A DNA stretch of 46,911 nucleotides from an uncultured Verrucomicrobiales bacterium (GCA_903898185.1 CAIUEN010000523.1:1-46911), one strand, 5' to 3'; positions 4,256-43,522 are shown, numbered from the stretch's first letter. Numbers and translations are program-made. Notes: a model not told the origin generated them from the letters alone.

Positions 4256-4327
4256 TATACTGTAAACGGGTAAGATCGTTCCTTGTTCTCGGCGCAAAAA
4301 ATAACATTCTTACCCGTTCAAAGTATA
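4256..4327. repeat. 72-bp palindromic MITE-like family B, copy 1
   Basis: tatactgtaaacgggtaaga...tcttacccgttcaaagtata terminal inverted repeats; second copy at 24892-24963. Confidence 0.8.
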
Positions 4328-9538: not shown

Positions 9539-9561
9539 GCACCGGAGGAGGAACCAGGGAA

Positions 9562-9675
9562 GGCTCACACAAAGACACAAAGACACGAAGACACGAAGAG
9601 GCAGGAAAAGAACTCTCTTTTTTCGATTCTGTTTATACCCAATCCTCTTTGTGCCTTTGTGCCTTTGTGTGAGTC
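9562..9675. repeat. Inverted pair of 8-mer tandem arrays
   Basis: (acacaaag)2(acacgaag)2 ... (ctttgtgc)2ctttgtgt around a ~40-nt spacer. Confidence 0.8.
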
Positions 9676-9715
9676 TTCCGCTGATTTGAAATTTTAAATC
9701 CAAAAACTGCAAATG

Positions 9716-9834
9716 AACCGCAGAACACGCGGAAAAAGAACCCATTGCGAAGAATGTATTTCTAATCTGACGGATGGCATCTTCAAAACTTTATTCCACC
9801 TCTTCTTTTCGCGTGTTTCGCGTGTTCTGCGGTT
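9716..9834. repeat. Inverted repeat with 9-mer tandem unit
   Basis: aaccgcagaacacgcg ... ttcgcgtgtttcgcgtgttctgcggtt. Confidence 0.7.
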
Positions 9835-21195: not shown

Positions 21196-21380
21196 CATAG
21201 GCATCCTTGCCTGTGCCCCTCTCTCCGGCGAGCGTCAGCGAGACGCTAATTTATTCCGGCGACCCGAACAGTTACAAAAAATCGTAACAGTTCAGGTCAG
21301 AGGGAGAAATTAGCGTCTCGCTGACGCTCGCCGACCGAGGGGGGCACAGGCAAGGATGCCTATGCTACGTGAACAGTTAC
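21181..21380. mobile_element. Two inverted family A MITE/REP copies (21181-21275 and 21284-21380) separated and flanked by near-identical 8-mers
   Basis: Copy 2 has termini gtaacagttca...tgaacagttac and AAAAAATC on both sides; copy 1 is preceded by AAAAGATC. Confidence 0.85.
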
Positions 21381-24891: not shown

Positions 24892-24963
24892 TATACTTTG
24901 AACGGGTAATATCGTTCATTCTTCTTGGTGCAAAAAACAACCTTCTTACCCGTTCAAAGTTTA
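24892..24963. repeat. 72-bp palindromic MITE-like family B, copy 2
   Basis: tatactttgaacgggtaata...tcttacccgttcaaagttta; same length and similar interior to 4256-4327. Confidence 0.8.
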
Positions 24964-24978
24964 AATGCCTTGTTCTTC

Positions 24979-25048
24979 ATCTGCGTTAATCTGCGTCATC
25001 TGCGGTTAACAGTTCTTTAACCACAGATGAACGCAGATGAACGCAGAT
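24979..25048. repeat. Inverted pair of short tandem arrays
   Basis: atctgcgttaatctgcgtcatctgcggttaa-cagttct-ttaaccacagatgaacgcagatgaacgcagat. Confidence 0.75.
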
Positions 25049-27104: not shown

Positions 27105-28892
27105 CTATTTCTGGTAGGCGGGGCGGTTGGTATAGCCGGTGTGCAGCAGCGACTCGGATTTGTGGCTGAGCGGTTTTTCCAGAAAGTCAGCGTAGAGTTG
27201 CTGAACGTAGGGGTTCTGGTGCGAGCAGCGCCAGAGTCCGGAGCCATCTTCGTGATAGAGTCCCTTGGCTCGGGCTTTGCGCAAAACGTCCGTCACCCCG
27301 TAAGGTTGGCCGCCGCCGCCGACGCAGCCGCCGGGACATGCCATCACCTCGATGAAGTGGTAGGGCATTTCAGCGCCTTTATCCTTGGCTTCGCGAACTT
27401 TGTTGATCACATATTCGACATTGCCCAGGCCGTGGGCAACCGCCACCCGGACTTTTGTCCCAACGATGTTGATCTCGCCTTCCTTGACGCCTTGAAGCCC
27501 GCGGACGACTTCAAACTCGAAACGAGGTGGGTTGCTGCCGGTAATCAGGTTGTAGGCAGTGCGCAAAGCGGCTTCCATGACGCCGCCGGTGGCGCCGAAG
27601 ATCGTGCCCGCGCCGGTGTAGGCACCCAGAATGTGATCGGGCTGATCGTCCGGAACGGTGATGAAGTCGATGCCTGATTGCTTGATCATGCGAGCCAGTT
27701 CGCGGGTGGTCAGGGAGACATCAACGTCTTGGAACCCGGATGCCTGCATTTCCTTGCTGCGACAGATTTCAAACTTCTTGGCGGTGCAAGGCATGATGGA
27801 CACCATGAATATCTTCGCCGGATTGAGCTTCATCTTCTGCGCGTAGTAAGTCTTGGCCAGCGCGCCAACCATGGCGTGGGGTGACTTGCATGTCGAGAAA
27901 TGCGGAATCATGTCGCCATGAAATTTCTCCATGAAATCAACCCAGGCCGGGCAGCAGGAGGTGATGAGAGGCAGAACCGATTTACCCTTCGTGAAGCGTT
28001 CGACGAACTCGCTGGCCTCCTCCACGATGGTGAGGTCCGCGCCGAAGTTGGTATCAAACACCGCTTTGAATCCCATGCGGCGCAGCGCGGCGTAGATTTT
28101 GCCCGTCAGGTTGGTGCCGGGCTCGAAGCCAAATGCTTCGCCAATGGCGACGCGGACAGCCGGGGCAATCTGCGCGACACAATAGGCGTGGGGATCGAGC
28201 AACTTGCTCCACACGGCCTCGGTCTCATCGTATTCGACAATGGCGCCTGTGGGACAGTGCGCGGAGCACTGACCGCAGCGCACGCAGGGAGAGTCGGCCA
28301 GATTGATGTCGCCGGCGGGGGCGATACGCGTCTCGATGCCGCGTTGCAGGAACGACAGCGCCCAGACATTTTGAATTTCCTGGCAGACTTGGATGCAGCG
28401 TCCGCAGGTGATGCACTTCTTGGGATCAAGCTTGATGGACAGTGTCGAAGTATCGGTGGGCAGTTGGGGCACGATGTTATCAAGTCCGTCCCAGACAAGG
28501 TTGAAATCCGCGGCCAGCGTTTGAAGTTCGCAATTCTGATTGCGCCCGCAGGTCAGGCACTGGTTGGGGTGTTTCGAGAGGATCAACTCCAGCACTGAGC
28601 GGCGGACTTGGATGATTTCGGGATCTTCGGTGGTGATGTCCATGCCGTCCTCAATGGGCGTGCAGCAGGCGCGCAGCATCTTGGGGGTGTTTTTGATGCG
28701 CACGATGCAGATGCCGCAGGCGGCGGTCGCGTCAAGATCCGGGTGTTTGCACAGTGTTGGAATTTTGACATGCACTTTGTGTCCGGCGTCGAGGATGGTG
28801 GTTCCCTGTTCGACTTGGACCGGCACTCCGTTGATAATTGCGTTAACCATGTTGACAGTTCTTTCAGGCGGTTCGAGTGAGTGATGGATCAT
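27105..28892 (-). CDS. hydA: [FeFe]-hydrogenase catalytic subunit, group A (HydA/HndD-like)
   Basis: 2Fe-2S (IPTLC..ACGIC..AC), His-ligated cluster (HPNQCLTC..NC), two CxxCxxC ferredoxin motifs; H-cluster P1 TSCCPAW, P2 MPCTAKKFE, P3 EVMACPGGCVGGGGQP. Confidence 0.96.
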   Translation of the reverse strand: MIHHSLEPPERTVNMVNAIINGVPVQVEQGTTILDAGHKVHVKIPTLCKHPDLDATAACGICIVRIKNTPKMLRACCTPIEDGMDITTEDPEIIQVRRSVLELILSKHPNQCLTCGRNQNCELQTLAADFNLVWDGLDNIVPQLPTDTSTLSIKLDPKKCITCGRCIQVCQEIQNVWALSFLQRGIETRIAPAGDINLADSPCVRCGQCSAHCPTGAIVEYDETEAVWSKLLDPHAYCVAQIAPAVRVAIGEAFGFEPGTNLTGKIYAALRRMGFKAVFDTNFGADLTIVEEASEFVERFTKGKSVLPLITSCCPAWVDFMEKFHGDMIPHFSTCKSPHAMVGALAKTYYAQKMKLNPAKIFMVSIMPCTAKKFEICRSKEMQASGFQDVDVSLTTRELARMIKQSGIDFITVPDDQPDHILGAYTGAGTIFGATGGVMEAALRTAYNLITGSNPPRFEFEVVRGLQGVKEGEINIVGTKVRVAVAHGLGNVEYVINKVREAKDKGAEMPYHFIEVMACPGGCVGGGGQPYGVTDVLRKARAKGLYHEDGSGLWRCSHQNPYVQQLYADFLEKPLSHKSESLLHTGYTNRPAYQK

Positions 28893-30583
28893 TTCCTTGC
28901 GATTCCCGGTTCTTTGCGGGCTGTTTTGGCGGCGGCGATACGTTCCATGAATTCCGGTTCAAAATATCGAAGCGCCGACAGGATGGGATTGGGAGCGGTC
29001 TGACCCAAGCCGCAGAGGGACGCCTTCTGCATGGCGTGAGCGATACGGCGCACGGTGGCGATGTCTCGCTCTGTGCCCTTGAGATCGGCGATACGATTGA
29101 GGGTGCGCAGAATCTGAGTGCCGCCAATCCGGCAGGGCGCGCATTTTCCGCATGATTCATCGACACAGAAGCCAAGGTAAAACCGCGAGAGTTCGACCAC
29201 GCTGTCGGTGTCGTCCATCACAATCATGCCGCCCGATCCCATGATTGAGCCCAGCGCCTGGAGATGCTCGTAGCTGACAGGAGTGTCAAGATGCTGCTCG
29301 GGAATCAGGCCACCCGAAGGGCCGCCCGTCTGCACGGCCTTGACGCGTCTGCCCGATGCGATGCCGCCGCATATTCCGTTTACCACTTCCCGCAGCGTTG
29401 TACCCATCGGAATTTCAACCAGGCCGGAGTTCTTGATTTTGCCGGTGACAGCGAAAACTTTGGTGCCGGTGGATTTACCAATGCCAATCGAGCCGAACCA
29501 CTTACCGCCGCGCACCAGGATCGGCGCGATGTTGGCCAGTGTTTCGACGTTGTTGATCATCGTCGGCATATTCCACAAACCTTTGACGGAGGGAAATGGA
29601 GGGCGCGGTCGAGGTGTGCCGCGTTTGCCTTCGACCGATGCGATGAGAGCCGTTTCTTCGCCGCAGACAAACGCTCCGGCGCCAAGGCGAATTTCGAGAT
29701 CGAATGAAAACTCGGTGCCCAGGATGTTCTTGCCAAGCAGTCCAGCAGCGCGCGCTTGGCGGATTGCTTTTTCGATGCGCTGGACGGCCAGCGGATATTC
29801 CGCGCGAATGTAAAACACGCCCTGGCGCGCGCCGATCACATAGCCGCCAATGATCATGCCTTCGATGATCGAGTGAGGATCGCCTTCGAGCACCGATCTA
29901 TCCATGTAAGCGCCGGGATCACCTTCGTCTCCGTTGCAAATGATGTAGTGCTCGTCGCCTTGGGCATCACGCGTCAACTGCCACTTGTGCCAGGTTGGAA
30001 AACCAGCGCCGCCGCGTCCGCGCAGTCCGCTGACCTTGAGTTCCTCAATAATCTGTTCGGACGTCATGCCCGAGAGCGCTTTCTGGAGCGCTTGGTAGCC
30101 CTCGCGCGCGATGTATTCGTCGATGCTTTCGGGATCAATCACGCCGCAATTGCGCAGAACGATGCGGTATTGCCTTGGCCCCGAAGCGCCAGGTGGCGTG
30201 GGAGTGTCGGATTTATCGTAAGCCACTGCCAGAGCCTCAATGGAGGGTACCAGGCGTTCGACGATCGGCTGGCTGCTCAGGACGTGTTCGTTAATGATTC
30301 GGCGCGCCAGTTCGGCATCGACGTTTCCATACATGGCTGCGGGCTGGCCGGGGATGCAGACTTCAACCAGCGGCTCCATGCTGCACATGCCAGCGCAGCC
30401 GGTACGAGAGATGAGGATGTTGGCAGATTTGGATTTTGCTTCTTCAACCAGCGTGTCAAATGCTAACACAGCTCCAGCGGCCACACCGCATGTGCTCATG
30501 CCGACTTTAATCGAAGGCTTGTCGAGTAACTGGGTGACTTTTGCGCGGTGCGCGTCCAGTTCTTGCGCTGTAAAACGTGGCAT
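28889..30583 (-). CDS. hydB: NuoF-like NADH/FMN-binding hydrogenase subunit with N-terminal thioredoxin-like 2Fe-2S domain
   Basis: TCG..GCAGMC, GLRGRGGAGFPT, DEGDPGAYMDR, GAFVCGEETAL, GGPSGG, ESCGKCAPCR..SLCGLG. Start ATG 30583 overlaps the upstream TAA. Confidence 0.92.
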   Translation of the reverse strand: MPRFTAQELDAHRAKVTQLLDKPSIKVGMSTCGVAAGAVLAFDTLVEEAKSKSANILISRTGCAGMCSMEPLVEVCIPGQPAAMYGNVDAELARRIINEHVLSSQPIVERLVPSIEALAVAYDKSDTPTPPGASGPRQYRIVLRNCGVIDPESIDEYIAREGYQALQKALSGMTSEQIIEELKVSGLRGRGGAGFPTWHKWQLTRDAQGDEHYIICNGDEGDPGAYMDRSVLEGDPHSIIEGMIIGGYVIGARQGVFYIRAEYPLAVQRIEKAIRQARAAGLLGKNILGTEFSFDLEIRLGAGAFVCGEETALIASVEGKRGTPRPRPPFPSVKGLWNMPTMINNVETLANIAPILVRGGKWFGSIGIGKSTGTKVFAVTGKIKNSGLVEIPMGTTLREVVNGICGGIASGRRVKAVQTGGPSGGLIPEQHLDTPVSYEHLQALGSIMGSGGMIVMDDTDSVVELSRFYLGFCVDESCGKCAPCRIGGTQILRTLNRIADLKGTERDIATVRRIAHAMQKASLCGLGQTAPNPILSALRYFEPEFMERIAAAKTARKEPGIARK

Positions 30584-31062
30584 TATTTCTCCGCTCCTTC
30601 CTTGATCTGGCAAATGTGCTCGACCGCGTCGTGCGGGTTCATCTTGGCCAGCAATTGTTCGTTGATGGTAACCACCGGCGCCAGCCCGCAGCAACCGATG
30701 CAGCGGACAATCTGCAGATGGAATTCGCCATTGGGCGTTGTCTCTCCGGATTTGATGCCGAGGTGTTTGGTGATGTCGTGGTAAATTCCCGGCGCGCCTT
30801 TTAAATAACACGCGGTGCCCATGCAGACGGAAACGACGTGTTTTCCGGGCGGCTTGAGTTTGAAGTAATTGTAGAAGGTTAGCACCTCATAAATGCGCGC
30901 CAGAGGCACGTCCATGTATTTGGCGAGTTTCATCGCCGACTCGCGAGGCACATAGCCATGGCGGCTTTGCAGGTCATGCAAGGCCATGATGAGGCTGCCG
31001 CGCGTGTTATTCCAGCGCTTGGCGATGACAGCGACGTCATCGACGACGGATGTATGTGTCAA
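30583..31062 (-). CDS. hydC: NuoE-like 2Fe-2S hydrogenase subunit
   Basis: TFYNYF, VCMGTAC..G, RCIGCCGLAP; TTG start with AGGAG RBS. Confidence 0.92.
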   Translation of the reverse strand: MTHTSVVDDVAVIAKRWNNTRGSLIMALHDLQSRHGYVPRESAMKLAKYMDVPLARIYEVLTFYNYFKLKPPGKHVVSVCMGTACYLKGAPGIYHDITKHLGIKSGETTPNGEFHLQIVRCIGCCGLAPVVTINEQLLAKMNPHDAVEHICQIKEGAEK

Positions 31063-31095
31063 GGTATTCTCCTGGGGTTGATGCTCATTGCCAAT

Positions 31096-33534
31096 TTATA
31101 ATCTGGCCCCTGCCCCCTGGCCAGGCACTCGTCCGATGTTCTGGAGCCGCTCGATCAGGCAGGCGTGACATTGCTCGGCGGTCTCCGTGATGCATGCTTT
31201 GTTGGGATAGATTTCGTAAAGTTTCCGATACTGAGTTGGCGTCAAGTTGGGCATCACAACGTTTGCGCCACGGCTCAGGCCCAATTCGCGTCCCTGTCGC
31301 GCATTGATCGTGGCCAGCGCTGTCGTGACCGGGAGATTGGCCGACGGACAAACCAACCGCGCCAAGGCAACGGTCTTGTAAACCATTTCTTCGGTGGCGG
31401 GCGCCTGGTCTTCCGGCGCAACGGCGCGCATCCACTCGCCTTTTCCCAGCGGCGTTGCCGGGTGCGGAATGAATGGACCAATGCCAATCATGTCGAGGTC
31501 CAGCCGCTGAAATGTCAAAATATCCTCCGCCAGGCTGGCATAGGTTTGGCCCGGAATGCCCACCATGACTCCCCCGCCGACTTCGTATCCGAGGGCGCGC
31601 AATTTTCTCAAGTTTGCGATGCGATCCGAAACGCGTCCCGGCAGCGGCGGATGAATGGCATCGTACAACTCACGATCTCTGGTTTCAAAACGGAGCAAAT
31701 ATCTGTCGGCTCCGGCTTGTTTCCAAGCGGCGAAATCCTCGTCTGAACGCTCGCCCAAACTCAGCGTCACGGCCAGCGGCGTTTCCTGTTTGATCTGGCG
31801 CGTGAGACTGGCGATGAACTCGCCGGTCAGCGCATAATCTTCGCCAGCCTGGAGCACAACAGTGCCATAGCCCATGCGCACGGCGTCGCGGACGCAGGCG
31901 AGAATTTCTGCGGCGCTCATGCGATAGCGTGTCAACGAGTTGTTTCCCGCGCGCAGACCACAGTAGCCGCATTGACGGACGCAGTGATTGGAAATTTCGA
32001 TCAGTCCGCGCAAGTGAACGGCAGGGCCAACGTTTTCCGCGCGAACCTTGTTGGCCTCGGCGTAAAGTTTTTCCAACTCGACCGCGCGAGTTTCGCGCAG
32101 CCACCCTTCAATCGAGGCAGCCGACATCAGACGGCTCAAACTCCCGGAAGCCGGAGTCTTCTGACGCATAGGCGCTAACTTAAAGGCATTGTTCCGTGGC
32201 GCGGGCGTCTCGCCTGCGGGTTCCGGCATCGTCTCGATGCACGGAGCAAAACCTTGGAGAACACGGGGCGGGGACGCCCCTTTAACCCGCAGCCGAGACG
32301 GCCGCGCTACGAGGCGTCGGCTGCCACGCGCAACCGTTAGCGCTTCCGGAAACGGACTCAACGCGCGCTCGAATATCCCAAGGCTATATGCAATGACCAA
32401 TCCATAATTGGTTATTGGCACGCCAGCCCGGCGGCATTTCATAATCCGGCTGAGCACCTCGCGCCGGTTCGACATACATGCCCCGCAGTGAATGACCAGC
32501 TTGAAGCCGGACAGATCGTCTGGAAAATCGCGGCCCTGCACATTCTTGAATTCCAACGGACCACCAACGTATTGCGTGAGCCAGAGTGGAATCTTGACGC
32601 GCCCGATGTCCTCTCCAATGGGATGATGAGTGCATGCTTCGGCCACCAAAATCCGGTCGCCTGGAACCAACCGGTCCACCGCAATCGCGCCCCTGACCTG
32701 TTCCACCAGGTCGCCCTTGAAACGGGAGAATAGAATCGAGAAACTTGTCAGCCATATCTCCGGCGGCGTATCGGCGGCCACTTTCAAAAATGCCTGAGAA
32801 TCAGTAACCACCAATTTGGGCGGCGCTTTCAGACGATTTAACGCCGCGCTCAAGTCGCTCTCTTTGACAACCATGCATAGCGAGTCGCCATCAAGCAAAT
32901 CACGGATGCTCTGGACTTGCGGCAGAATCAGCCTGCCTTTGGGCGCCTCTTTGTCAATTGGCACCACGAGCACGGCCAATTCGCCCGGCCCCACAAGATC
33001 GCGAAGAATCGCCGTGTTTTCGACAAATTCAGCCGGGGCAGTTTTGAGAATCGCCTCGCGCAATTCCGAAATTCCCGCTCCACTGCTCGCCACGGTTTGC
33101 GCAATCGCAACTGTTTTGAGCTTTTGCAGTAATTCCGCATCCGGCTTGGCGAGATCGCACTTGTTGAACACCACCACGACGGGTATTTTGCGCTGGGAAA
33201 ACTCGCTGAGGAGTTGTTCTTCAAAATCGCCCCACTGACCTGCCGCAGCCACAAGAATGCCCAAATCTGCATGATCAAAGACTGATTGGGTTTTGCGCGC
33301 CCGCAAAGCGCCCAGAACGCCTGTGTCGTCAATGCCCGCCGTGTCAATAAATAGAACCGGCCCGAGGGGCAGCAGCTCCATTGGTTTCTCAACCGGATCA
33401 GTTGTGGTGCCGGCGATTTCCGAAACAATCGAAACGTCCTGTCGCGCAATGGCGTTGAGGAGGCTTGATTTTCCAACATTGCGCCGCCCGAAAATTCCAA
33501 TATGGAGGCGCATTCCTTTGGGCGTGGATGTCAT
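31096..33534 (-). CDS. Single ORF fusing H-cluster maturation GTPase HydF (N-terminal) and radical SAM HydE (C-terminal, from about ATG 32127)
   Basis: HydF: GRRNVGKSS, GTTTDPV, DTAG, NKCD, EACTHH, HCGAC. HydE: LRGLIEISNHCVRQCGYC, GANVVMPN, YEIYP. Start ATG 33534 with AAGGAG RBS. Confidence 0.88.
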   Translation of the reverse strand: MTSTPKGMRLHIGIFGRRNVGKSSLLNAIARQDVSIVSEIAGTTTDPVEKPMELLPLGPVLFIDTAGIDDTGVLGALRARKTQSVFDHADLGILVAAAGQWGDFEEQLLSEFSQRKIPVVVVFNKCDLAKPDAELLQKLKTVAIAQTVASSGAGISELREAILKTAPAEFVENTAILRDLVGPGELAVLVVPIDKEAPKGRLILPQVQSIRDLLDGDSLCMVVKESDLSAALNRLKAPPKLVVTDSQAFLKVAADTPPEIWLTSFSILFSRFKGDLVEQVRGAIAVDRLVPGDRILVAEACTHHPIGEDIGRVKIPLWLTQYVGGPLEFKNVQGRDFPDDLSGFKLVIHCGACMSNRREVLSRIMKCRRAGVPITNYGLVIAYSLGIFERALSPFPEALTVARGSRRLVARPSRLRVKGASPPRVLQGFAPCIETMPEPAGETPAPRNNAFKLAPMRQKTPASGSLSRLMSAASIEGWLRETRAVELEKLYAEANKVRAENVGPAVHLRGLIEISNHCVRQCGYCGLRAGNNSLTRYRMSAAEILACVRDAVRMGYGTVVLQAGEDYALTGEFIASLTRQIKQETPLAVTLSLGERSDEDFAAWKQAGADRYLLRFETRDRELYDAIHPPLPGRVSDRIANLRKLRALGYEVGGGVMVGIPGQTYASLAEDILTFQRLDLDMIGIGPFIPHPATPLGKGEWMRAVAPEDQAPATEEMVYKTVALARLVCPSANLPVTTALATINARQGRELGLSRGANVVMPNLTPTQYRKLYEIYPNKACITETAEQCHACLIERLQNIGRVPGQGAGARL
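32196..32310. repeat. GTAG-type REP doublet inside the hydF-hydE linker
   Basis: 27-bp arms gtggcgcgggcgtctcgcctgcgggtt / aacccgcagccgagacggccgcgctac (3 mismatches), enclosing two small hairpins. Confidence 0.8.
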
Positions 33535-33571
33535 TATTGTTCGTCTCCTTTGGTTGGCATCCTGTTGAAAA

Positions 33572-34972
33572 TTACACAAAAACATCGCGATGTCCGCTCT
33601 TCACACGGGACACCATTTTTTCGCACTTTTGGCGCGGAACCGGTGACATTGTTTCCATCATCGCCTGTATCCTTTTCTCCCCTTCGGCGCGGGTTTGCGG
33701 CGTGGCGTAGTCGCAAAGATACTCCTGGAAAGTGCTCAGCCCGTTGGGCTCGCAGTGTTTTTTGATTTCGCCCGGTTTGGCAAGGTCCATAAAATCCCGT
33801 CCCGTGCGTCCCATCCGGTAACAGCCAGTGCAGAACGAGGGGATGAATCCCATCCGCACGGCGTCCAGCACGACTTCATCCAAAGGCCGGTGATCGCCCA
33901 ACTGAAACTGGCTTGTGTCCTGGCCGCTTTGGTGGCTGGTGTAGCCGCCGGGATCGGTACGGCTGCCCGCCGAGATTTGCGAAACGCCCAGTTGCAGTGT
34001 TTGGTTTCGCAGTTCCGAAGATTCGCGCGTGGACATAATAATCCCCGTGTAAGGCACGGCGATTCTCAAAATGGCCACCAGTTTTAGAAAGTCCTGGTCG
34101 CTCACCGCAAACGGCGGACGGCTGGCCACGTTCGATCCCGCCGCCAACTCCATGCGGGGCACGCTGATTGTGTGCGGTCCGACGCCAAACACATCTTCCA
34201 GATGCCGCGCGTGTTGGAGAAGGCTCAGCAATTCGAAACGCCAGTCGTAAAGCCCAAACAAAGCGCCGATGCCCACGTCGCCAATGCCAGCCTCCATCGC
34301 GCGGTCCATCGCCTCCAGTCGCCAGTGATAATCCCGCTTTGGACCGGCCAAATGATGCTGGCGGTAGGTCTCTTCATGGTAGGTCTCCTGAAAAAGCTGG
34401 TAGGTGCCGATATTTTCCGCTTTGAGCTGCCGAAATTGATCCACGGACAGAGGCGCAATGTTCACATTGACCCGCCGGATCTCACCGTTGCCGACCTTTG
34501 TCGCGTAAATCGTGCGGATGGATTCCAAAACATAATGGATGTTCTTGCCAGCGCCGAATTCCTCACCAGCAACCAGCAGTAACCGCTTGTGCCCTTGCGA
34601 CACGAGCGCCTTCACTTCTTCGGCGATTTCGGCCTGTGTCAGGGTGCGGCGGCGCAGCGCCAGGTTCTCGCGGCGAAAGCCACAGTAAGCGCATTCGTTT
34701 AAACAAGCGTTGGAAATGTAGAGCGGAGCAAAGAGCACCAACCGCGAGCCATAAATCTCATCCTTAACCCGGCGCGCGGCAACATGCAGCTCGTGCAATA
34801 ACGCCATATCCTCCACGCGGAGCAAGAAAACAACCTCTTCCAATTCAAGTCCGCGCAACTCGCCCGCTTTGGCCAGGATTTCACGCACGCGGCTCCCATC
34901 GGGCATAGCGGCTGACCGCAGGAGAGTCTGCGTTTGGGCATTGCTGACAAAATCAACGATGGCGCTACTCAT
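33572..34972 (-). CDS. hydG: [FeFe]-hydrogenase H-cluster radical SAM maturase HydG
   Basis: FAPLY.SN.CLNECAYC, GEIRRVNVN, LFQETY, GPHTISVPR, auxiliary SFCTGCYR..C; start ATG 34972 with GAGG RBS. Confidence 0.95.
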   Translation of the reverse strand: MSSAIVDFVSNAQTQTLLRSAAMPDGSRVREILAKAGELRGLELEEVVFLLRVEDMALLHELHVAARRVKDEIYGSRLVLFAPLYISNACLNECAYCGFRRENLALRRRTLTQAEIAEEVKALVSQGHKRLLLVAGEEFGAGKNIHYVLESIRTIYATKVGNGEIRRVNVNIAPLSVDQFRQLKAENIGTYQLFQETYHEETYRQHHLAGPKRDYHWRLEAMDRAMEAGIGDVGIGALFGLYDWRFELLSLLQHARHLEDVFGVGPHTISVPRMELAAGSNVASRPPFAVSDQDFLKLVAILRIAVPYTGIIMSTRESSELRNQTLQLGVSQISAGSRTDPGGYTSHQSGQDTSQFQLGDHRPLDEVVLDAVRMGFIPSFCTGCYRMGRTGRDFMDLAKPGEIKKHCEPNGLSTFQEYLCDYATPQTRAEGEKRIQAMMETMSPVPRQKCEKMVSRVKSGHRDVFV

Positions 34973-35032
34973 AAAACCTCTTAAAGCTTGCTTCAAAAGC
35001 GGCAGCCGACGCAAGGATGCTCTGAGGGTCGC

Positions 35033-35432
35033 CAGCCATTCTCATTATGGCAGGTAACAAGAATATCCAATCAATGGAAGATTCCTGCCTTCCGGGCCTT
35101 GCTCATGACAGGGATTGAATATCCAATATCGAACAAGGAATGTCCAATAATGAAGTGAAAAAGCGTTCCAACCCGAATTCAGTTCCAGTGCAGCAGAGGA
35201 GTTCGCGAAATTGTGCGACATAATAGAAAGAGCAAAACAGCAGGCAGGATTGATGATGTTGGAGTGGGTTCACCTTCCGCGTTCCGTGTTCTGCGGTTTC
35301 AATTGCCAATTCCAGGTTTGACGGCTCCCCACTTCATTATTGGACATTCCTTGTTCGATATTGGATATTCGGGCAGAAACTTTCCTCTGCATATTGGGTA
35401 TTCTTGCTTGCCTGCCATAATGAGAATTGCTG
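35033..35432. mobile_element. Complete 400-bp MITE-like family C element with nested inverted repeats
   Basis: Outer TIR cagccattctcattatggcagg.. / ..cctgccataatgagaattgctg; perfect 41-bp inner IR at 35117-35157 / 35330-35370; flanks gagggtcgc / gaggggtgc. Confidence 0.85.
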
Positions 35433-35542: not shown

Positions 35543-36298
35543 TCATTTTAGGGCTTGGCAGTCCGGTGCTGAACCTGACGATGGCGCACGGGGGCACACA
35601 AGCCCGAACACGAGGTAGTCCTTTGCTTGAACGACCAAGGCGTCTTTCCGCTTCTGCCAGTCGGGCATCGCTCGACCAAGGGTGTTCCAAAAAGCAGGCC
35701 CGTGGTGGCCTTCGACCAAGTGAATCAGTTCATGCATGATGATGTAGTCCACCAACCGCACGGGCAACTGAAGAACTTTCCAGTTAAAAAGAACAACGCC
35801 ACTCTGGCTGCACGAGCCCCAGCGAAATCCCAAGTCGCGAACTTTGATTCGTTCCGGTTTGCGGGCGGTATGCAGTGAGAGCTGTTCGACCCGACGACGA
35901 AGCCAATCGGTGCCCGTGAGCAGATACCAGCGCCGGAAATGTTCCTCTGCCGGGCGGGCATCGCGTCGAAGAATGAACCGTGTGCCATCAAATTGGAGCG
36001 GATGCTCCTGTTTTGCCACAACCTTGAGTCCAAAGCGACGGCCCAAATAGCAAAACGCCTCCCCGGAAACGTATTCCGGCGCTTGCACCTTGGGAGCAAC
36101 TTCATCCTTTAGTGATAATTTGCGATGCACCCAAAGCAGTTTCTTGGTGATCCATCGATTGAGTTCTTCAACTGAAGTTTCAGATGGAGCGTGTGCAACC
36201 AACTCTCCAGCACGATCGACCGTCAGGCCGAGCGTTTTCCGCAAGTCGCTTCGGCGCACCTCAAAGACGAGGCCGCTGATATGAATCGTCTCTGTCAT
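35543..36298 (-). CDS. M48/YgjP (DUF45)-family metal-dependent hydrolase associated with type I RM
   Basis: RWGSCS, NWK, DYIIMHELIH..HGPAFW; ATGA overlap with the hsdR stop. Confidence 0.85.
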   Translation of the reverse strand: MTETIHISGLVFEVRRSDLRKTLGLTVDRAGELVAHAPSETSVEELNRWITKKLLWVHRKLSLKDEVAPKVQAPEYVSGEAFCYLGRRFGLKVVAKQEHPLQFDGTRFILRRDARPAEEHFRRWYLLTGTDWLRRRVEQLSLHTARKPERIKVRDLGFRWGSCSQSGVVLFNWKVLQLPVRLVDYIIMHELIHLVEGHHGPAFWNTLGRAMPDWQKRKDALVVQAKDYLVFGLVCPRAPSSGSAPDCQALK

Positions 36299-39200
36299 GA
36301 CCGGCTCAAATATTCGTGGTTCTCTTTCGCCAGCGCGACGAGACGTTGAGCGAGATCGCGTTCGCCGCCCGGACGGCATATTCCGGCCCGGTCGAGATCC
36401 CGAACCAGGGTCTTGGTCAGGAGGTCGCGCATGGCGTCGTTCTTCCAAAAACCGACTTTGCGAACTTCCTGACAGATGCGCTCAACCATGTCCAAGGTTG
36501 TTTTTATGATCTGCTCGCGCTTCTTCGCGTCAAGTTCCCGTCCTTCACTGCATTCTTCGATCACAAGACGAACGAACGGCACTTGCGCTTTAGCGTCCAA
36601 GTCCGGAAAATCGTTTCGGTCGCCATGCTGCAGCTCAGCAATGAGCTTTTTGAGTTCGCGTTCAAGCACGTCCCAATCGTCTTTGAACCGCTGAAGAATT
36701 TCCTCCAGCCGCTGGCTCATCTTCCGGGCGAAGGCTGGGCTCTGATTCGCAAAGCCGATTATGTGATAGCGCGCGGCGTGCTTCATCTCGGCCGCACGTT
36801 CGCGACTGCTCTTCTTGGATTTCAGAACCTTTTCAAAATCCGCGTCAGTGATGGCGGTGGACGGAATCTTCGGGTCAACGCCGCGAGCTGAGATGTGAGC
36901 ATCGATCAGTTCCTTGACCTTCTCCGCTACGCCGAAAAGATTGAGAGCGGGGTCGCGATAGAGGTTGGCCGCCACCTTGTTGATGAACCCAAGCAGCTTG
37001 GCATCTCGGAACACGTCGCCCGGAATTTCCGGACGGTGCTCCAATTGGCCCAGTGTTTCGTAAAACATCCGCAACTTGTTGATGAAATCGGCTCGAATCT
37101 TCAGGTCTTCAAGTAACTGCACGCACCTATCCACCTGCCCCTGCAAATCGGTGACGCCCAGGTCAAAGAATACCGCAACGGCGCGCGCCCGTCGGTCGAG
37201 CAACTTTGGCAACTCGACACTGATGTTGATCAATGCTCCTTCGGTGTCCTCGCCATCGTAATCGGTGAGAGCTTCCTTTAAGTGTCGGGCCACACCGATG
37301 TAGTCCACCACATAACCACACTTTTTCTGGCCGCAAGTTCGGTTTACCCGCGCAATGGCCTGCAAAAGGTCATGAGCTACGATTTTGCGGTCGAGGTAAA
37401 GCACCTGTTCAACCGGCGCATCGAATCCTGTCAATAGCATGTTCATCACGACAAGGATAGAGAGCGGATCGGTCTTTTCGGTCTTGGCTGGGGCAAACTT
37501 CCGCTTGAACCGTTTGATATACTCCTCCTGCTTTTCCTTGTCGGCCCATTCCCACCAGGATTCAGGGTCGTTGTGGTCGCCGGAAAAAACGGCCGCAATC
37601 TCCAGCGCTCGTAGCTTGGGCAATTGCGGGTGAATTTGCACCAGAAGGCGCGTCTTTGCATCGAGCTTTTCCACCTCATCATCGGGCAAGGCCAGTGTGG
37701 CGGCAGGCACAGCTTCCAATTCGCCGACAAATTCATCCCGAGCCCGCGCCAGCTTGTCGAGATAAGTCATGACCGCAGGGCGACTCGTCGCAACAACCTG
37801 CGCTTTGAATCCTTCCGGAAGCGCCACGCCAGCATAGTGCCTGATCATGTCGCGCGCCTTTTGTTCGATGAGCAAAGGCGCATCCATAACGTCCCCCTCG
37901 GTCGCATACTTGGCCTTGATAACGGCCAGTTCCTCTGGCTTGTAATCACGGAACATGTCCTCGAATACGGCGTCGAGGCTGGGGGCATCCTTGACAATGC
38001 CATCCGCCGTCCGGCCTTCGTAAAGAATCGGCACGGTCGCGCCATCCAACTCCGCGTCCCGGATAATATATTTGTCAATAAAGTCGCCGAAGATTTCGCG
38101 AGTCTCTTTCTTTTCGTGACTGAGGATGGGCGTTCCGGTAAAACCGATAATGGCCGCATTGGGCAGAGCCTTGCGCAGATTGCGATGCAACGTGCGTGTA
38201 TGCGAACGATGCGCCTCGTCCACCAACACGAGGATGTCCTCCGAGTCGTTAAGCAGCGGAAAATCCTCGAAATGTATATTCTCCGTAAAAGTGACCTCTT
38301 TTTCAATGACGGCCTCATTCTTGCCGGGCTTTTTCTCCTTGCGCAGAATGGTCATCGTAACCTTATCACCCGCCTCTGGCATCAGGGCCAGTTCATTGCC
38401 TTGGGACTTGCCGCCCACGGGCTGATATTTTTGCAACATCGCCATGATGATGTCCGGCGTCCGCTCGCTCAGGAGCCGCTGTGTCAATGCTGTCGGCGAC
38501 TCGCGCGATTTCAAATCTTCGTCCGTTGGGCGCACGGCTTCACCGCTCAACTGCGCCGTCGCGCCAAGCTGAGCCTGCAGATCGGTGCGGTCGGTCACCA
38601 CCACCACCATGAAACGGTTGAGGCGCGGCATCATGCGCATCTTGCGGACAAGAAAGACCATGGTGAGGCTCTTGCCGGAGCCTTGGGTGTTCCAGATGAT
38701 GCCGCCGCGCTTGTCGCGCTCGGCCCCCTGACTCTTTGTGCGGCCTTCCTGCAACTTGGTGACTGTCTTGTGAACGACGCGAAACTGCTGGTAGCGTGCC
38801 ACCACCTTGCGCGTCTTGCCATCCACCTGTTGAAATACAGTGAAGTTGCGGATCAGGTCGAGGAGGTGCGCTGGACGCAACATGCCGGCGGCGAGAATCT
38901 GCTGGCTTTGGAGCGTCGCGCCTTGGCCGCGCAACGCGGTGGGTCTTTGCTCGGCATTGCGGAAAAAGAGAGGGATGCCAGCACGGTCGCCTTGTTCCTG
39001 GCCGAGCGTGGTCAATTCCTGAGCGGCTTCTGTAACGTCAGCGGATGGCGGCAAGACACCCAGTTCCTGCGCCACGGTGCTCAGTGGCACGGGGCTGGTG
39101 TCCACCCATTCCAAGAAGGCTTCCGGCGGCGCGCCGACGGCGGCCGCGCGCGCCTCAAAGAAGTTGCTGGCGATAAGCAGTTGGTTTGTGTGGAACAGTC

Positions 39201-39813
39201 GCTCCACGCCTTCGTTATCAGTATAACGGGTCGGGTAAACCTCGCGGCGCTGATTCGTGTAGCGCAAGAGCTGGTTGATAGCCTCCTGCAACGGGTTCTG
39301 AATGCCGGGACTCTTAAATTCCGCCACTGACACGGGAATGCCGTTGATGAACATCACAGCGTCCGGGATGACGTGTCCGCACCCGCTGGTGAGTTCGACC
39401 TTGAATTGGTTGATGACGAGGAAATCGTTGTTGGCCGGATTCTTGAAATCAATGAACCGCACCGGCTGGTTGCGCCCAAAATTCCAATCGGGCACACCGT
39501 CAATCTCCGTTCCTTTCAGCAGAAGATTGGTCGCTGATTCGTTGATTTCCATCAGGCGATGGCCCCCGGCCTTTTCCAGCTTTTCAATAATGCGGCGGAT
39601 GCGGTCGTCATCCAGCCACGGCTGCCCATCGCGCAGATTGATCTTCCGCAGGGCTGCCGCTAGGCGGCCTTTCAGGAACACTTCTCGGAAATTGGCCCGC
39701 TCGGTAAAATCCGGCACGTCCTTGTCGCCTTTAATCCACTGCCAGCCCATCGCCTTGAGTTGCTCGCAAAAGGGGCGCTCGACCAGATCGTATTCCCATT
39801 GAATCTTGCTCAT
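36295..39813 (-). CDS. hsdR: Type I restriction endonuclease subunit R
   Basis: PD..(FINGIP)..EFK nuclease motif, QLLRY, TQGSGKS, DEAH, GFTGTP, MLLTGFDAP, LLQAIARVNR. Confidence 0.95.
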   Translation of the reverse strand: MSKIQWEYDLVERPFCEQLKAMGWQWIKGDKDVPDFTERANFREVFLKGRLAAALRKINLRDGQPWLDDDRIRRIIEKLEKAGGHRLMEINESATNLLLKGTEIDGVPDWNFGRNQPVRFIDFKNPANNDFLVINQFKVELTSGCGHVIPDAVMFINGIPVSVAEFKSPGIQNPLQEAINQLLRYTNQRREVYPTRYTDNEGVERLFHTNQLLIASNFFEARAAAVGAPPEAFLEWVDTSPVPLSTVAQELGVLPPSADVTEAAQELTTLGQEQGDRAGIPLFFRNAEQRPTALRGQGATLQSQQILAAGMLRPAHLLDLIRNFTVFQQVDGKTRKVVARYQQFRVVHKTVTKLQEGRTKSQGAERDKRGGIIWNTQGSGKSLTMVFLVRKMRMMPRLNRFMVVVVTDRTDLQAQLGATAQLSGEAVRPTDEDLKSRESPTALTQRLLSERTPDIIMAMLQKYQPVGGKSQGNELALMPEAGDKVTMTILRKEKKPGKNEAVIEKEVTFTENIHFEDFPLLNDSEDILVLVDEAHRSHTRTLHRNLRKALPNAAIIGFTGTPILSHEKKETREIFGDFIDKYIIRDAELDGATVPILYEGRTADGIVKDAPSLDAVFEDMFRDYKPEELAVIKAKYATEGDVMDAPLLIEQKARDMIRHYAGVALPEGFKAQVVATSRPAVMTYLDKLARARDEFVGELEAVPAATLALPDDEVEKLDAKTRLLVQIHPQLPKLRALEIAAVFSGDHNDPESWWEWADKEKQEEYIKRFKRKFAPAKTEKTDPLSILVVMNMLLTGFDAPVEQVLYLDRKIVAHDLLQAIARVNRTCGQKKCGYVVDYIGVARHLKEALTDYDGEDTEGALINISVELPKLLDRRARAVAVFFDLGVTDLQGQVDRCVQLLEDLKIRADFINKLRMFYETLGQLEHRPEIPGDVFRDAKLLGFINKVAANLYRDPALNLFGVAEKVKELIDAHISARGVDPKIPSTAITDADFEKVLKSKKSSRERAAEMKHAARYHIIGFANQSPAFARKMSQRLEEILQRFKDDWDVLERELKKLIAELQHGDRNDFPDLDAKAQVPFVRLVIEECSEGRELDAKKREQIIKTTLDMVERICQEVRKVGFWKNDAMRDLLTKTLVRDLDRAGICRPGGERDLAQRLVALAKENHEYLSRS

Positions 39814-40087
39814 AAAGGATGTTCACAAAATGGCGTTATCACAGAAGGGGGCGTTATGCTAAAAATAGATACGTACGCTATATATTGTGTATTCTTAAAT
39901 AATTGCGGCAAAGCATACAATTCAGGCTTTCTTAGACCTTGCGCTATTTAAGGTCTCTTGGACCATTGCGGCCCACGGTTCTGCCAGACAATAGTTCCTG
40001 ATCCGTAGCGTGCCCGGTTGTTCGGCTTGGGAGAAGCTCGACATCCTTGCCCTGCCACCATTCCACCACCTCCCGCATCATCTCCTT

Positions 40088-40163
40088 CCACTGGCAGCCC
40101 ATTGCCTTGAGCTGTTTGCAAAAGTGGCGCTCGACCAAATCGTATTCCCATTGGATTTTCATA
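40088..40163 (-). pseudogene. Duplicated 5' fragment of hsdR
   Basis: MKIQWEYDLVERHFCKQLKAMGCQW versus hsdR MSKIQWEYDLVERPFCEQLKAMGWQW; the DNA is a diverged direct repeat of 39735-39813. Confidence 0.85.
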
Positions 40164-40190
40164 AAGTCATCATGGCCGAGGCTATCTTGT

Positions 40191-40652
40191 TTAGACAAGC
40201 TCAGGCGCGCGATCAAAAACGCCAAGGTGCCCATCCAGCGACCAAATGAAAACCCGTCTTCCTCGATGGAGGGCGCATTGGCGTTCCCATTCTTTCACGA
40301 TGGTCAAATCGCCCAGACCCAGACCACCCATCGCCCGGTCTGGAAATTCTGCCAGCCAAGATTGTATTGAAACCATCTCAAAAAACGGCGTCGGCGTCCA
40401 GGGGGTGTGCCCATCGATGGCTGCGGTGACTTCGCTCACGAATCGCTCTGCCGCCCGGCGACGCTCGGCACCATTGCCATTTTGCGCAATATGGTTGCCT
40501 GTTTCGACCACTGCAGCCATGGGCAGAAGCAATGTAGTTCTCTCAGTGATGAGTTGCCTCAGTTGCGTTATGACGTCCGTATGGTACTGATCCCGGTTTG
40601 GCACCCGGATGACGTTGCAGAAGACACTGGTGTCGATTAAACAAATGCTCAT
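40191..40652 (-). CDS. PIN-domain-like nuclease (153 aa)
   Basis: Acidic tetrad in PIN spacing: LIDTSV, VVETGN, GLGDL, SLDGHL; ATGA overlap with the upstream ATPase. Confidence 0.75.
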   Translation of the reverse strand: MSICLIDTSVFCNVIRVPNRDQYHTDVITQLRQLITERTTLLLPMAAVVETGNHIAQNGNGAERRRAAERFVSEVTAAIDGHTPWTPTPFFEMVSIQSWLAEFPDRAMGGLGLGDLTIVKEWERQCALHRGRRVFIWSLDGHLGVFDRAPELV

Positions 40653-41956
40653 CGTTTGTCCGTGCTCAGTTCCAATTGCTCCACGTAGGCCAATGCCTCA
40701 CGCTGTTTTTCCTCTGACGGCTTTGCAGTCTTGACCATCCGATCCAAGACTCCCTGTGTCACCAAACGCCCCAACGGGCCTTGAGCAACCAGTTCGGGGT
40801 AATTTGGCAGTGCTTCCAATCGCACCAAGCGACTGTCCCCCTGTTGCGGGTCGCGGTAACAGAACACAACGTCGGGAATCGCGGTAATGGGCAAGGCATC
40901 CAGCAGGGCGGGATTATGGCTCGTCAAAAGAACCACCAGTTTCTGTTCCCGTGCCACCTTTTCAATATTGGCCAACAGCGTCTTTGCCCGGCTGGGATGC
41001 ACCCCATTGTCGATCTCCTCCACGACGACGGTTGAACCCGTGGGAGCTGACAGCAGCCCCGCCGCAACCGCGATTACCCGTAGTGTTCCATCGGACAAAA
41101 CGGCTGCCTCACGGAACTGCTTTTTGCCGCCAAAAGTCTCCTCCAGTTTAACCATCACTTCCTTCCTTGGCCCTTCGAGGAACTGGATGTCGCTGATATC
41201 CTGCTCGGGCAAATCGCGCACAAACGAGAGCATTTTCTCCTTGGCCTGCTGCGTGACGCATAAATCATAAAGCGTGCTGGAGATATTGCTGCCATCCCCT
41301 TTCAATACTTTGTCAACGATGAAACTGTAATTCCGCATTCGGCGCGGCATCGGGTCCAGAAAAAGAATGCGCTCCAATGCCTGCATGAACGACTTTGCCA
41401 CCGTGGAAATTTCTTTTTGCGAACGCTCGTGCTGCGCGGCAAACCGGGCTGGCGTCAGCAATTGTGTGAACACCGCCTGCTGATCGGTGCAGGTGATCTG
41501 CGGCTTGTTGCCGCCGCGCGAGAAATTATTGTAGCTGACCAGCAGATCATGCGAGAAGCCGCTGATACCCTGATCCACTTGATACAGCGGGAGATTTTCA
41601 TTGGGGCTTCCCACACGTTCCTGGACAATCCGCATTCCCTCCGGCCCGACGCTGATCTCGACCACCAAATCGCTCCACTCCGACAGGTGTTGGAGGACGC
41701 AGCCTAAACGGAAGCTGGCGGCACCTTCATAGGTCAGGTCGGAAACCGTCCCACGAATGAGCAATTCCGATTCCTGCACCGCTTGAAACACATCTTCAAG
41801 ACGCCGCCCCCGCGAGAGCCACGAAAGCATTTGCATGCCCTCCAAGGCATTGCTTTTCCCGGAAGCATTGGCACCAATCAACAAGGTCAGCGGCGAAAGG
41901 TCGAGCGATGCATCTCGATAACTCTTGAAGTTGGCCAATGTGAACTTCTTTAACAT
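40649..41956 (-). CDS. ABC-type (AAA_21/AAA_15-like) non-transporter ATPase
   Basis: NFKSY, Walker A GANASGKS, signature LSDGT, Walker B/D-loop VVVEEIDNGVHP, H-loop TSHNP; no TM partner. Confidence 0.88.
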   Translation of the reverse strand: MLKKFTLANFKSYRDASLDLSPLTLLIGANASGKSNALEGMQMLSWLSRGRRLEDVFQAVQESELLIRGTVSDLTYEGAASFRLGCVLQHLSEWSDLVVEISVGPEGMRIVQERVGSPNENLPLYQVDQGISGFSHDLLVSYNNFSRGGNKPQITCTDQQAVFTQLLTPARFAAQHERSQKEISTVAKSFMQALERILFLDPMPRRMRNYSFIVDKVLKGDGSNISSTLYDLCVTQQAKEKMLSFVRDLPEQDISDIQFLEGPRKEVMVKLEETFGGKKQFREAAVLSDGTLRVIAVAAGLLSAPTGSTVVVEEIDNGVHPSRAKTLLANIEKVAREQKLVVLLTSHNPALLDALPITAIPDVVFCYRDPQQGDSRLVRLEALPNYPELVAQGPLGRLVTQGVLDRMVKTAKPSEEKQREALAYVEQLELSTDKR

Positions 41957-41988
41957 AATGAAAATGTATCAGATGGGTGTGGCGTTGG

Positions 41989-42180
41989 TCATTTCTTAAT
42001 CTGAAGGGTGTCCTGCCCAAGCTGCGCCTCGCCAGAAAGCTCTGCCAGCTCTCGATTGATGATTTCAAGCCGCACCTTGAGGCTTCGCAGGTCAATCACA
42101 TCCTCTACTGGCATATCGGCAATCATGCGCTCCAGAGCAGACCGTTCCGATAAGAGACTTTGTTGCTCAATGCTGCGCAT
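41989..42180 (-). pseudogene. Short helical ORF, probably a truncated gene fragment
   Basis: MRSIEQQSLLSERSALERMIADMPVEDVIDLRSLKVRLEIINRELAEL looks protein-like (coiled coil) and ends after 63 aa. Confidence 0.4.
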
Positions 42181-42307
42181 AGTGTTCGGAAAAGGGGACG
42201 GCGTAGAGATCCCGATCGGACGATGTCGAAGCCTCCGCGTCAATCGGCGACAAGATGCCATCGACGTTCCAATGATGTATGGCCACAAGTGGCAGCATAG
42301 GGAAAGC

Positions 42308-43522
42308 TTATAGTTTCGTTGTGGACAAGTCGAGCACGGGCACGCGGACGCGGCCGGTGAGAAGGTCGGTCATCAGGCCGGATTTCAGATGGTGGAGTTT
42401 TGCCTTCTCGTTTTCCTCGGCGCTCAGGCTCTTATCGGCTGCGTCTAATTGAGCTTCGATAATCGTCTGCTCTTCAATCTTGGGGAGCGCGATCTTCTGA
42501 AACGATATTTTTTGAACGGACAGTCCAGGTTGAGCCGACGATTCGGAAAAGCGATTAAGATTCATGCGCGTGAGATAACAGGCCAACCATCCCGCACTGA
42601 TTTTTTTTACTGGAGCACAAACAACTGCGTGCTCAGTAGCGAAGAATTTTCCCGAGGCCATGACGATGTTTCCGCACAAAGCTCCCTGCCTCCCAATTAT
42701 GGCGTAACGCCCATGGTGGGTAAAACGCGAAGTAAATCCCCGAACGCCATTCCCGCCGAAAACGGGATACGTTCCCATTTCTGAAACGTCTTCACTGGTC
42801 AACATCTCGCCTGCTTGCATTGACAAAGCTTCCCCAAGACTCGTTACCTCCCACTCTTTGGGGATTTGCCCGAGAGGGGAGTCTTGGAATTGTTCAGGGT
42901 GGGCGATGGGGTCGCGGAGTTGGCCGTGCTGGTCGAGGCCGCGGGTGAGGAGGTCGTGGAGCAAGCCGACGCGCACCTGCCGCAGCTTCGCAATCACCGC
43001 ACCGGTCTTTGAGATTGCCTCGTCAACTGTGTCCAGAACCGCCGCAATGCGGGACTGCTCTGCAATTCCCAATTTGGGAACTCGGAAGTTCGTGAAAAAG
43101 TCTGACTGAACTCGCTGCTGCCCCGCAGAACCACCCATAAATGCAATGGCTCGCATGCGTGTGTTACTATCTTGTAAGCAATGGAAAAGGAAGCGTGCAG
43201 AATTTTCGCCCCGCGCGCGCAATACGTGAAACTCAGTGCTGCCAAAGCCTACCCCGTTCGCCAGACCTATAGCATGCGCTCCTTTGCCGTTCTCCATGCA
43301 AGGCGTGATTTTTGCGAAAAGCACGTCATCTTCAGCGAACGGCGTGTATCCAAAACGCACGTCATCAAAGCGTCGTTCCTGGCGATTCACCCATTGACCA
43401 CTTTCGGTCACGTCCGACATCCGGATGAAAGAAACAGGTGTGTCCTCGCGCATTCGCTGCAGATCCACCCTTGGATTCACTTCGGCTAGGTCGGCGATTG
43501 CGTTGGTTTCCTGTGCGTTCAT
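42308..43522 (-). CDS. hsdS: Type I RM specificity subunit
   Basis: Two TRDs (FAKITPCMENGK..GSTEF; YPVFGGNG..IGRQGALCG), conserved EQ..IA helices, linker DSPLGQIPKEW, C-terminal GLMTDLLTG. Confidence 0.93.
   Translation of the reverse strand: MNAQETNAIADLAEVNPRVDLQRMREDTPVSFIRMSDVTESGQWVNRQERRFDDVRFGYTPFAEDDVLFAKITPCMENGKGAHAIGLANGVGFGSTEFHVLRARGENSARFLFHCLQDSNTRMRAIAFMGGSAGQQRVQSDFFTNFRVPKLGIAEQSRIAAVLDTVDEAISKTGAVIAKLRQVRVGLLHDLLTRGLDQHGQLRDPIAHPEQFQDSPLGQIPKEWEVTSLGEALSMQAGEMLTSEDVSEMGTYPVFGGNGVRGFTSRFTHHGRYAIIGRQGALCGNIVMASGKFFATEHAVVCAPVKKISAGWLACYLTRMNLNRFSESSAQPGLSVQKISFQKIALPKIEEQTIIEAQLDAADKSLSAEENEKAKLHHLKSGLMTDLLTGRVRVPVLDLSTTKL

Follow-up and report, generated by a model that had tools for sequence, protein, structure and literature searches.

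In the maturation of [FeFe]-hydrogenases, HydE turns the HydG Fe-cysteine complex into a di-iron precursor, which dimeric HydF receives and delivers to HydA (PMC11826987, PMC5431965). The HydF dimer binds HydE and GTP binding releases it (PMC5431965). The release of the HydE product to HydF is still posed as a question (PMC11826987), and the contact areas of HydF were unknown as of 2017 (PMC5431965). A locus of an uncultured Verrucomicrobiales bacterium, in which HydF and HydE share one reading frame with a palindromic repeat in the linker, raises the question of whether a small mobile element joined the two enzymes or was inserted into an older fusion. In this study, we analysed the window carrying this locus, that is, the whole 46,911-nt contig C523 of the genome G000 (GCA_903898185.1; 4.48 Mb in 535 contigs). 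The DNA of the window was found in lake and freshwater metagenomes. The protein of the studied locus is referred to as P0001.

A single reading frame joins HydF and HydE

The HydF-HydE reading frame runs from 33534 to 31096 on the minus strand and encodes 812 residues without any stop (Table 1). The HydF half matches TIGR03918 over residues 4-392 (model positions 2-392) with 547 bits, against a curated cut-off of 325.55 bits, and the HydE half matches TIGR03956 over residues 475-801 with 318.8 bits, against 254.6 bits. Hence, the view taken in an earlier sequence-only reading, that one uninterrupted frame joins a complete HydF to a complete HydE, is borne out. This fused frame is also the sole hydF and the sole hydE detected in the G000 assembly. 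It lies between hydG and hydC-hydB-hydA, all co-oriented, and the NADH-linked [FeFe]-hydrogenase encoded by the latter genes is the likely client of the maturases.

Table 1. Features of the fused maturase locus and its surroundings (coordinates of the window).
Feature	Coordinates	Strand	Evidence
HydF part, residues 1-396: GTPase, dimerisation and FeS/tetramerisation domains	32347..33534	-	TIGR03918; PF01926, PF18128, PF18133
HydE part, residues 475-812, radical SAM	31096..32112	-	TIGR03956; PF04055
hydG, same orientation, upstream of the fusion	33572..35014	-	TIGR03955, 527 bits
hydC, hydB, hydA: NADH-linked [FeFe]-hydrogenase	27105..31062	-	NF040763, 789 bits; NuoE/NuoF-like matches
Junction, 78 codons (234 nt), from P396 to I475	32113..32346	-	domain boundaries and model
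TTG (L466), nine codons before I475, with an overlapping +1-frame TGA	32136..32139	-	relatives start HydE at the I475 position
In-frame ATG (M470) overlapped by a +1-frame TGA	32125..32127	-	weak, distant ribosome-binding site
GTAG-type REP doublet, GTAG at one end and GTGG at the other, read in frame	32196..32310		inverted arms, folding, relatives
149-nt multicopy unit containing the doublet; hydF-side terminal repeat absent	32167..32315		assembly depth, contig ends
17-nt terminal inverted repeat of a DDE (IS4/IS5-type) transposon	32167..32183	+	exact matches and transposase remnant

Both halves retain their metal-binding cysteines. In HydF, the motif C301-x-H303 ... H349-C350-x-x-C353, which we take to hold the cluster ligands, is intact and its residues are invariant in our alignments; G16-S23, T43-T45, D64-G67 and K125-D127, presumably the GTPase motifs, are present and conserved in the alignment. 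In HydE, the radical SAM CX3CX2C cysteines (C518, C522 and C525) and the intact second-cluster cysteines (C781, C789 and C792) are likewise invariant. A single-sequence AlphaFold model (pLDDT 36) was discarded and a model built on a 92-row alignment was used instead. In this AlphaFold2 model both halves fold confidently (mean pLDDT 88, pTM 0.57), residues 396-409 prolong the last HydF helix, and the relative orientation of the halves is not fixed. The pLDDT falls below 50 at residues 411-464, a segment of ~55 residues that is predicted to be disordered. Matches in the PDB cover the HydF and HydE halves separately, with none across both.

The hyd cluster (27105-35014) looks horizontally acquired, since hydF exceeds the cut-off in none of 30 same-family genomes and the maturases do not group with same-order maturases in trees. 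Upstream of hydG, in the likely promoter region, a perfect 41-nt inverted repeat lies within a larger nested palindromic stretch (35117-35370).

The linker carries a mobile repeat

The linker had been described as ~70 residues of low complexity containing a 115-nt inverted-repeat element. The repeat DNA does lie in frame in the linker, but the mobile piece is larger, comprising the 149 nt listed in Table 1. The doublet itself is a GTAG-type element as proposed, with GTAG/GTGG outer ends, an inverted palindromic pair and recurrence in the genome, the features that define GTAG REP dimers. Its arms (32195-32222 and 32284-32311) are 89% complementary, its DNA folds with a z of -6.6 (0 of 200 shuffles fold as well), and relatives occur on the G000 contigs C17 (two), C420, C4, C526, C455 and C341, as well as in 6 of 30 same-family genomes. 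A single tblastn search of G000 with a RAYT tyrosine transposase query, distant and unverified, gave no match.

The limits of the mobile unit emerge from the metagenome assemblies. In run X3, another sample of the same study as the possible source, the unit has a depth of 30 versus ~7. Unique flanks meet this high-depth piece exactly at 32167 and 32315, the unique contigs end 30 nt inside these positions, and in X3, X6 and X8 the loose ends at 32315 carry 32167-32183 in reverse complement. The copy in the window differs from the multicopy unitig at one position in 130 nt; the element is therefore young. The 17-mer at its hydE side occurs exactly in 5 of 300 other genomes of the order, often at contig ends, and in L223 a facing pair of these 17-mers, 1.3 kb apart, encloses a broken PF01609 DDE transposase. 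Thus, the unit has its end in common with a transposase-coding element, as MITEs do, but the window copy has the hydE-side repeat alone rather than terminal inverted repeats at both ends. Other copies extend past 32315 into a second terminal repeat, visible in the loose ends alone. We infer that the parent element was a MITE of 166 nt with the REP doublet inside it, and that 149 nt and a single end remain in this copy. By eye, no target-site duplication is obvious, one element end being missing. A candidate relic of the second end, 8 nt at the hydF end that match the terminal repeat, was dismissed, since the peptide encoded at this place is similar to native HydF tails. The unit is multicopy in all four metagenome runs but single in G000, where no PF01609-type transposase was found and no contig end holds a 14-mer of the unit; further copies may have been missed by the assembly or may come from other organisms.

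In-frame repeat peptides appear to be routine in this setting. Two of the 62 GTAG/GTGG doublets counted in G000 lie within frames having 150 codons on either side, namely the HydF-HydE linker doublet and one of two copies in an exosortase ORF (PF09721; 594 codons; C17:19349-21133, or L211:1279-3063). Both exosortase copies belong to the same GTAG family and are read in the same peptide frame. Moreover, the unfused hydF tails of L123 and L124 (68 and 46 residues) read, as judged by eye, through REP-like hairpins, which suggests that the hydF-hydE junction takes up such repeats repeatedly. In-frame REP peptides have been published for Opitutus terrae (PMC3733652) and in-frame MITE peptides for bacteria (PMC2229807).

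The +1 frame of the junction is marked by several stops. TAA 32339 and TAG 32309 follow the end of HydF, as had been pointed out from the sequence, and TAG 32177, TGA 32138 and TGA 32129 lie further on. The terminal repeat brings in TAG 32177 together with an out-of-frame TAA at 32182 and an in-frame ATG at 32169 (M456). The TTGA at 32139-32136, spotted post hoc, is likely a relic of an ATGA stop/start overlap.

Alleles and metagenome reads support the open frame

A one-base mutation or sequencing error had been named as the alternative to a true fusion. This is unlikely, given that four distinct 812-aa alleles exist and that no indel is listed at the junction in the metagenome assemblies of all four runs. 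These four proteins, present on 6, 2, 1 and 1 contigs, form a 90% cluster of seven members with three HydE-only calls (357-377 aa), which start at Met residues within the linker. Among the alleles, which are not independent, the linker changes faster than the domains (7/78 residues versus 21/734, Fisher p 0.013), as a neutral spacer would. The open frames of the four alleles were rejected as proof of selection, the changes being too few. The RNA run X13 holds 0.08 of the words, which is not evidence of expression.

Maturase fusions in other genomes

The statement that bacterial hydE and hydF are usually separate agrees well with our survey. Among 95 genome loci examined, hydE directly follows hydF in 49 (two of them identical), and the studied locus and L034 alone are fused. 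The 80 best metagenome loci include 45 adjacent pairs, one of them fused, and 35 loci without the hydF end. Overall, fusion is found at 2 of the 93 other adjacent loci. Within the order, hydF is present in 15 of 401 genomes and fused in two; within the phylum, none of 149 other hydF genes among the matches listed (202 in all, 52 unlisted) is fused to HydE. Long open frames around hydF in six genomes of the phylum proved to be GC-rich upstream frames and not fusions. In 20 of the 44 unfused metagenome loci, the first near start is a -4 stop/start overlap (ATGA).

Further fusions in the HydF-HydE (F-E) order, which the sequence-only reading had suggested looking for, do exist. The best 120 of 1055 protein matches (446-1421 aa) contain nine other clusters of full-length F-E proteins (P0002-P0009 and P0078), two partial ones (P0010 and P0014) and one E-F protein (P0012). 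P0011 and P0076, in which both domains matched but are apparently frameshifted, were excluded from these counts. The domain content and order of the F-E proteins are those of P0001, but their junctions are unrelated to it: they span 26-65 residues in the nine full-length clusters and 26-69 residues with the partial proteins included. The shortest are those of P0002 (26 residues), P0003 (31) and L154 (26). The GTAG doublet is absent from the junctions of L034 and L154, fusions whose DNA was seen. Automatic JGI names read HydF/HydE for P0005, P0008 and P0128. Several of the fusions, as single-contig records, may be errors or transient mutants.

A search among 50% representatives added an F-G (P0430) and an E-G (P0374) protein together with three long E-F proteins. 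In the HydF-HydG protein P0430, the HydE-HydG protein P0374 and the HydE-HydF protein P0012, each half exceeds its curated cut-off. Since E-F, F-G and E-G joins also occur, adjacency rather than a special F-E tether likely drives fusion. The F-E fusion is thus less singular than it had seemed. On four trees, 6-8 changes of the fused label are required, and with 30 chosen rows the AU test rejects a tree that unites the 10 fused ones in one clade (p-AU 1.4e-55); judged from these sequences, the F-E fusion arose several times. One fused clade (P0004, P0128, P0005 and L034 of G307) persists across ~10% divergence with junctions of 61-65 residues. The junctions of P0004, P0128 and L034 lack Met, so these fusions may be obligate and may make a better test object.

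G307 is the other member of the order with an F-E fusion, and the junction of L034 is without the element. The same genome carries ten copies of the 17-nt transposon end (L224, L228 and L230-L237), each followed by a shared, different palindromic interior, which likely represent a second MITE family with the same ends.

Origin of the fusion

We give an even chance to the reading in which the element created the fusion, landing in the hydF tail so that a single reading frame resulted. The ancestor would have had a hydF stop overlapping the hydE start, at what is now TTGA 32139-32136. The element would have landed in the short hydF tail, shifting hydF past the overlapping stop into the hydE frame, and the insertion plus the loss of the hydF-side terminal repeat would amount to a net in-frame join. 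Such a join would persist because it secures the translation of HydE, which has no good start site itself. The cell likely makes a single two-enzyme maturase with a floppy linker, tolerated rather than selected. What was observed, and what this scenario builds on, is the open frame with two intact domains, the multicopy unit with its transposon end, and the overlapping stop and start of relatives. That the element made the fusion is likely, given the surviving stop/start relics and the unfused state of the nearest relatives. Two stop/start overlaps in the +1 frame of P0001 fall in the frame class of the relatives' ATGA overlap, and the nearest stand-alone proteins (HydF P0253, 80%, and P0254, 78%; HydE P0133, 72%) belong to the same clade as P0001, although contig ends may have truncated P0253 and P0254. 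A search of the 80 best genome loci, as many best metagenome loci and 30 same-family genomes gave no empty-site relative with more than 80% identity. The frame arithmetic varies with the boundary chosen (115, 117 or 149 nt). In the unfused L124, L169 and L052, inserts separate the hydF stop from the hydE start, and hence stop/start coupling is not strictly needed. Given that the same join arose repeatedly elsewhere without the repeat, the fusion is likely a tolerated accident with no new mechanism.

A serious contender, which we nevertheless consider unlikely, is that the fusion predates the repeat: in a common ancestor of P0001, P0002 and P0003, HydF and HydE would already have been joined by ~26-31 residues, the element would have entered that linker later and in frame, and some lineages would have split again. 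In concatenated trees built without stand-alone proteins, P0001, P0002 and P0003 form a clade with support of 98-99, which suggests an older fusion, and AU tests do not reject a single origin of the three (p 0.26 and 0.40). The presence of the same repeat family in frame inside the exosortase ORF fits a later insertion, the 234-nt junction minus those of P0002 and P0003 (78-93 nt) comes close to the 149-nt unit, and three fused members in one small clade lie far above the 2/93 background, which counts against creation by the element. However, the unfused P0253, P0254, P0297 and P0133 sit in the same clade, and the three fused proteins group together in 0% (HydF) and 4% (HydE) of 200 bootstrap trees, which with 23 rows are unsettled. 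The linkers of the trio share little (6/23 and 12/31 aligned residues), off-frame stop/start relics would be expected to decay over ~30% protein divergence, and P0002 and P0003 are single-contig records. P0003 has a P0253-like tail followed by a Met that precedes the HydE core by 8 residues, and looks from its sequence like a separate recent join. Between a fusion created by the repeat and one spanned by it, which the sequence-only reading had left side by side, the evidence leans to creation, with an older shared fusion not rejected by the AU tests. Much less probable than either is an assembly artefact, in which two copies of the multicopy unit and the DNA between them collapsed and hid a stop codon. 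The unit is over-covered ~4-fold in X3 or more, short-read assemblies could all fail alike, and the absent hydF-side terminal repeat could be a collapse scar. The proposed inspection of reads at the junction revealed no indel, but none of the contigs listed in the four runs bridges the whole repeat and 48 pieces were unlisted, which leaves low odds for a collapse. Against this, the repeat is just 149 nt long, hydF-hydE is the expected neighbour order, and four different 812-aa alleles exist. In X3, unique contigs match 31000-32196 with 0 and 32286-33435 with 1 differing letter, without gaps, and the flanks of the repeat have equal depths (6.9 and 6.6).

Translation and function of the fused protein

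As no stop follows HydF, ribosomes that start at ATG 33534, where there is a Shine-Dalgarno-like site (duplex -8.7 kcal/mol), would continue across the hairpin and translate HydE. Each half would keep its usual job, and ~55 disordered residues would allow work in cis or in trans. By analogy, a long flexible F-E chain is likely functional, since HydE is proposed to make a di-iron product that goes to HydF (PMC11826987), HydF binds HydE, and the HydEF of Chlamydomonas works in E. coli (PMC2847965). Tethering might bring a benefit, though this is unsupported.

We regard as improbable that an internal start (TTG 32139, ATG 32127 or ATG 32169) gives rise to most of the HydE as a separate protein, with little of the long product, or with that product stalling at the hairpin or being clipped within the linker. 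These three in-frame start codons do follow a strong mRNA hairpin that could stall ribosomes, GGGAG lies 13 nt before ATG 32127 (duplex -6.9 kcal/mol), and the predicted disorder of the linker would suit clipping. However, with no HydF stop, every full HydF must continue into HydE unless cleaved. The ATG that the sequence-only reading saw at 32127 is present, but M470 is Arg in 3 of the 7 members of the 90% cluster, and its ribosome-binding site is weak and distant, the GGGAG sitting in a stretch that reads as self-complementary. TTG 32139 and ATG 32169 are without ribosome-binding sites (-0.9 and -3.4 kcal/mol, versus -8.7 for hydF). By eye, no slippery site for programmed frameshifting was seen. 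Least probable of all is an adaptive fusion, in which HydE tethered to HydF channels its labile di-iron product under positive selection. The repeated origins, the persistence of the P0004 clade with junctions free of Met, and the GTP-released binding of HydE to HydF (PMC5431965) speak for it. Yet F-E fusions are rare both at adjacent loci and among the phylum matches listed, their linkers are unconserved, every neighbouring maturase pair fuses somewhere, and the model (pTM 0.57) gives no fixed orientation of the halves.

Relation to known systems and significance

Like the algal HydEF of Chlamydomonas and Tetraselmis, P0001 holds both maturases in one chain with an unconserved linker (PMC3897525). 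As had been recognized from the sequence, the order is opposite, HydE then HydF in algae and HydF then HydE here, and the locus is therefore not of the algal type. In addition, the proposed origin of algal HydEF is an intron-mediated join, and it occurs in nearly all hydrogenase-bearing green algae, whereas bacterial F-E joins are sporadic (PMC3897525). The linker resembles intragenic GTAG REP dimers (Di Nocera, De Gregorio and Rocco 2013, PMC3733652), in which a GTAG/GTGG-ended inverted dimer is read in frame over tens of residues. Most intragenic GTAG repeats were reported from the verrucomicrobium Opitutus terrae, and those in linkers are thought to be neutral (PMC3733652). Unlike those REPs, which interrupt single genes, the present repeat is flanked by two genes that are normally separate and forms part of a transposon-ended unit. 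Bacterial MITE/RPE open-frame fusions (Delihas 2008, PMC2229807) are similar in that hairpin elements of 100-200 nt are in frame in protein genes, and Rickettsia gmk with such an insert stays active (PMC2229807). Those are element-to-gene fusions, whereas here an element with one terminal repeat joins two complete enzymes.

In the literature covered, mostly open-access main texts, we found the algal E-F fusion alone and no fusion in F-E order, nor any paper on a mobile element joining two genes. The accessible parts of PMC9431212, PMC11216029 and PMC7460606 contain nothing on F-E chains; 'HydFE' in PMC9431212 denotes HydF co-expressed with HydE. Other 'hydF-hydE' strings, as far as these sources could be followed, were an operon title or a complex and were rejected as fusions.

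The locus is a real but modest finding, a sporadic maturase fusion with a mobile-element linker. It shows no new chemistry, and among F-E chains it has the longest and least informative linker; its value is that of a recent small mobile element likely creating a gene fusion. A bolder reading, which we hold only tentatively and rather doubt, is that a spreading MITE welded two enzymes into one working protein in a lake population, as only an in-frame landing kept the coupled hydE expressed. F-E chains would then be an undescribed, repeatedly evolved architecture, whose junctions of 26-78 residues could trap the HydE-to-HydF hand-over. Natural F-E chains, especially short ones such as P0002, P0003 and L154, constrain the geometry of this hand-over and are ready single-chain constructs for structural work and heterologous hydrogenase maturation.

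Upstream of the hyd cluster, the window contains a type I restriction-modification set at 35543-46317 (hsdM, hsdS, hsdR, a YgjP-like gene and an AAA ATPase). Further palindromic repeat families lie at 4256-4327, 9558-9834, 21192-21368 and 24892-25048, and the GTAG-ended 177-nt palindrome at 21192-21368 recurs at many sites in G000.
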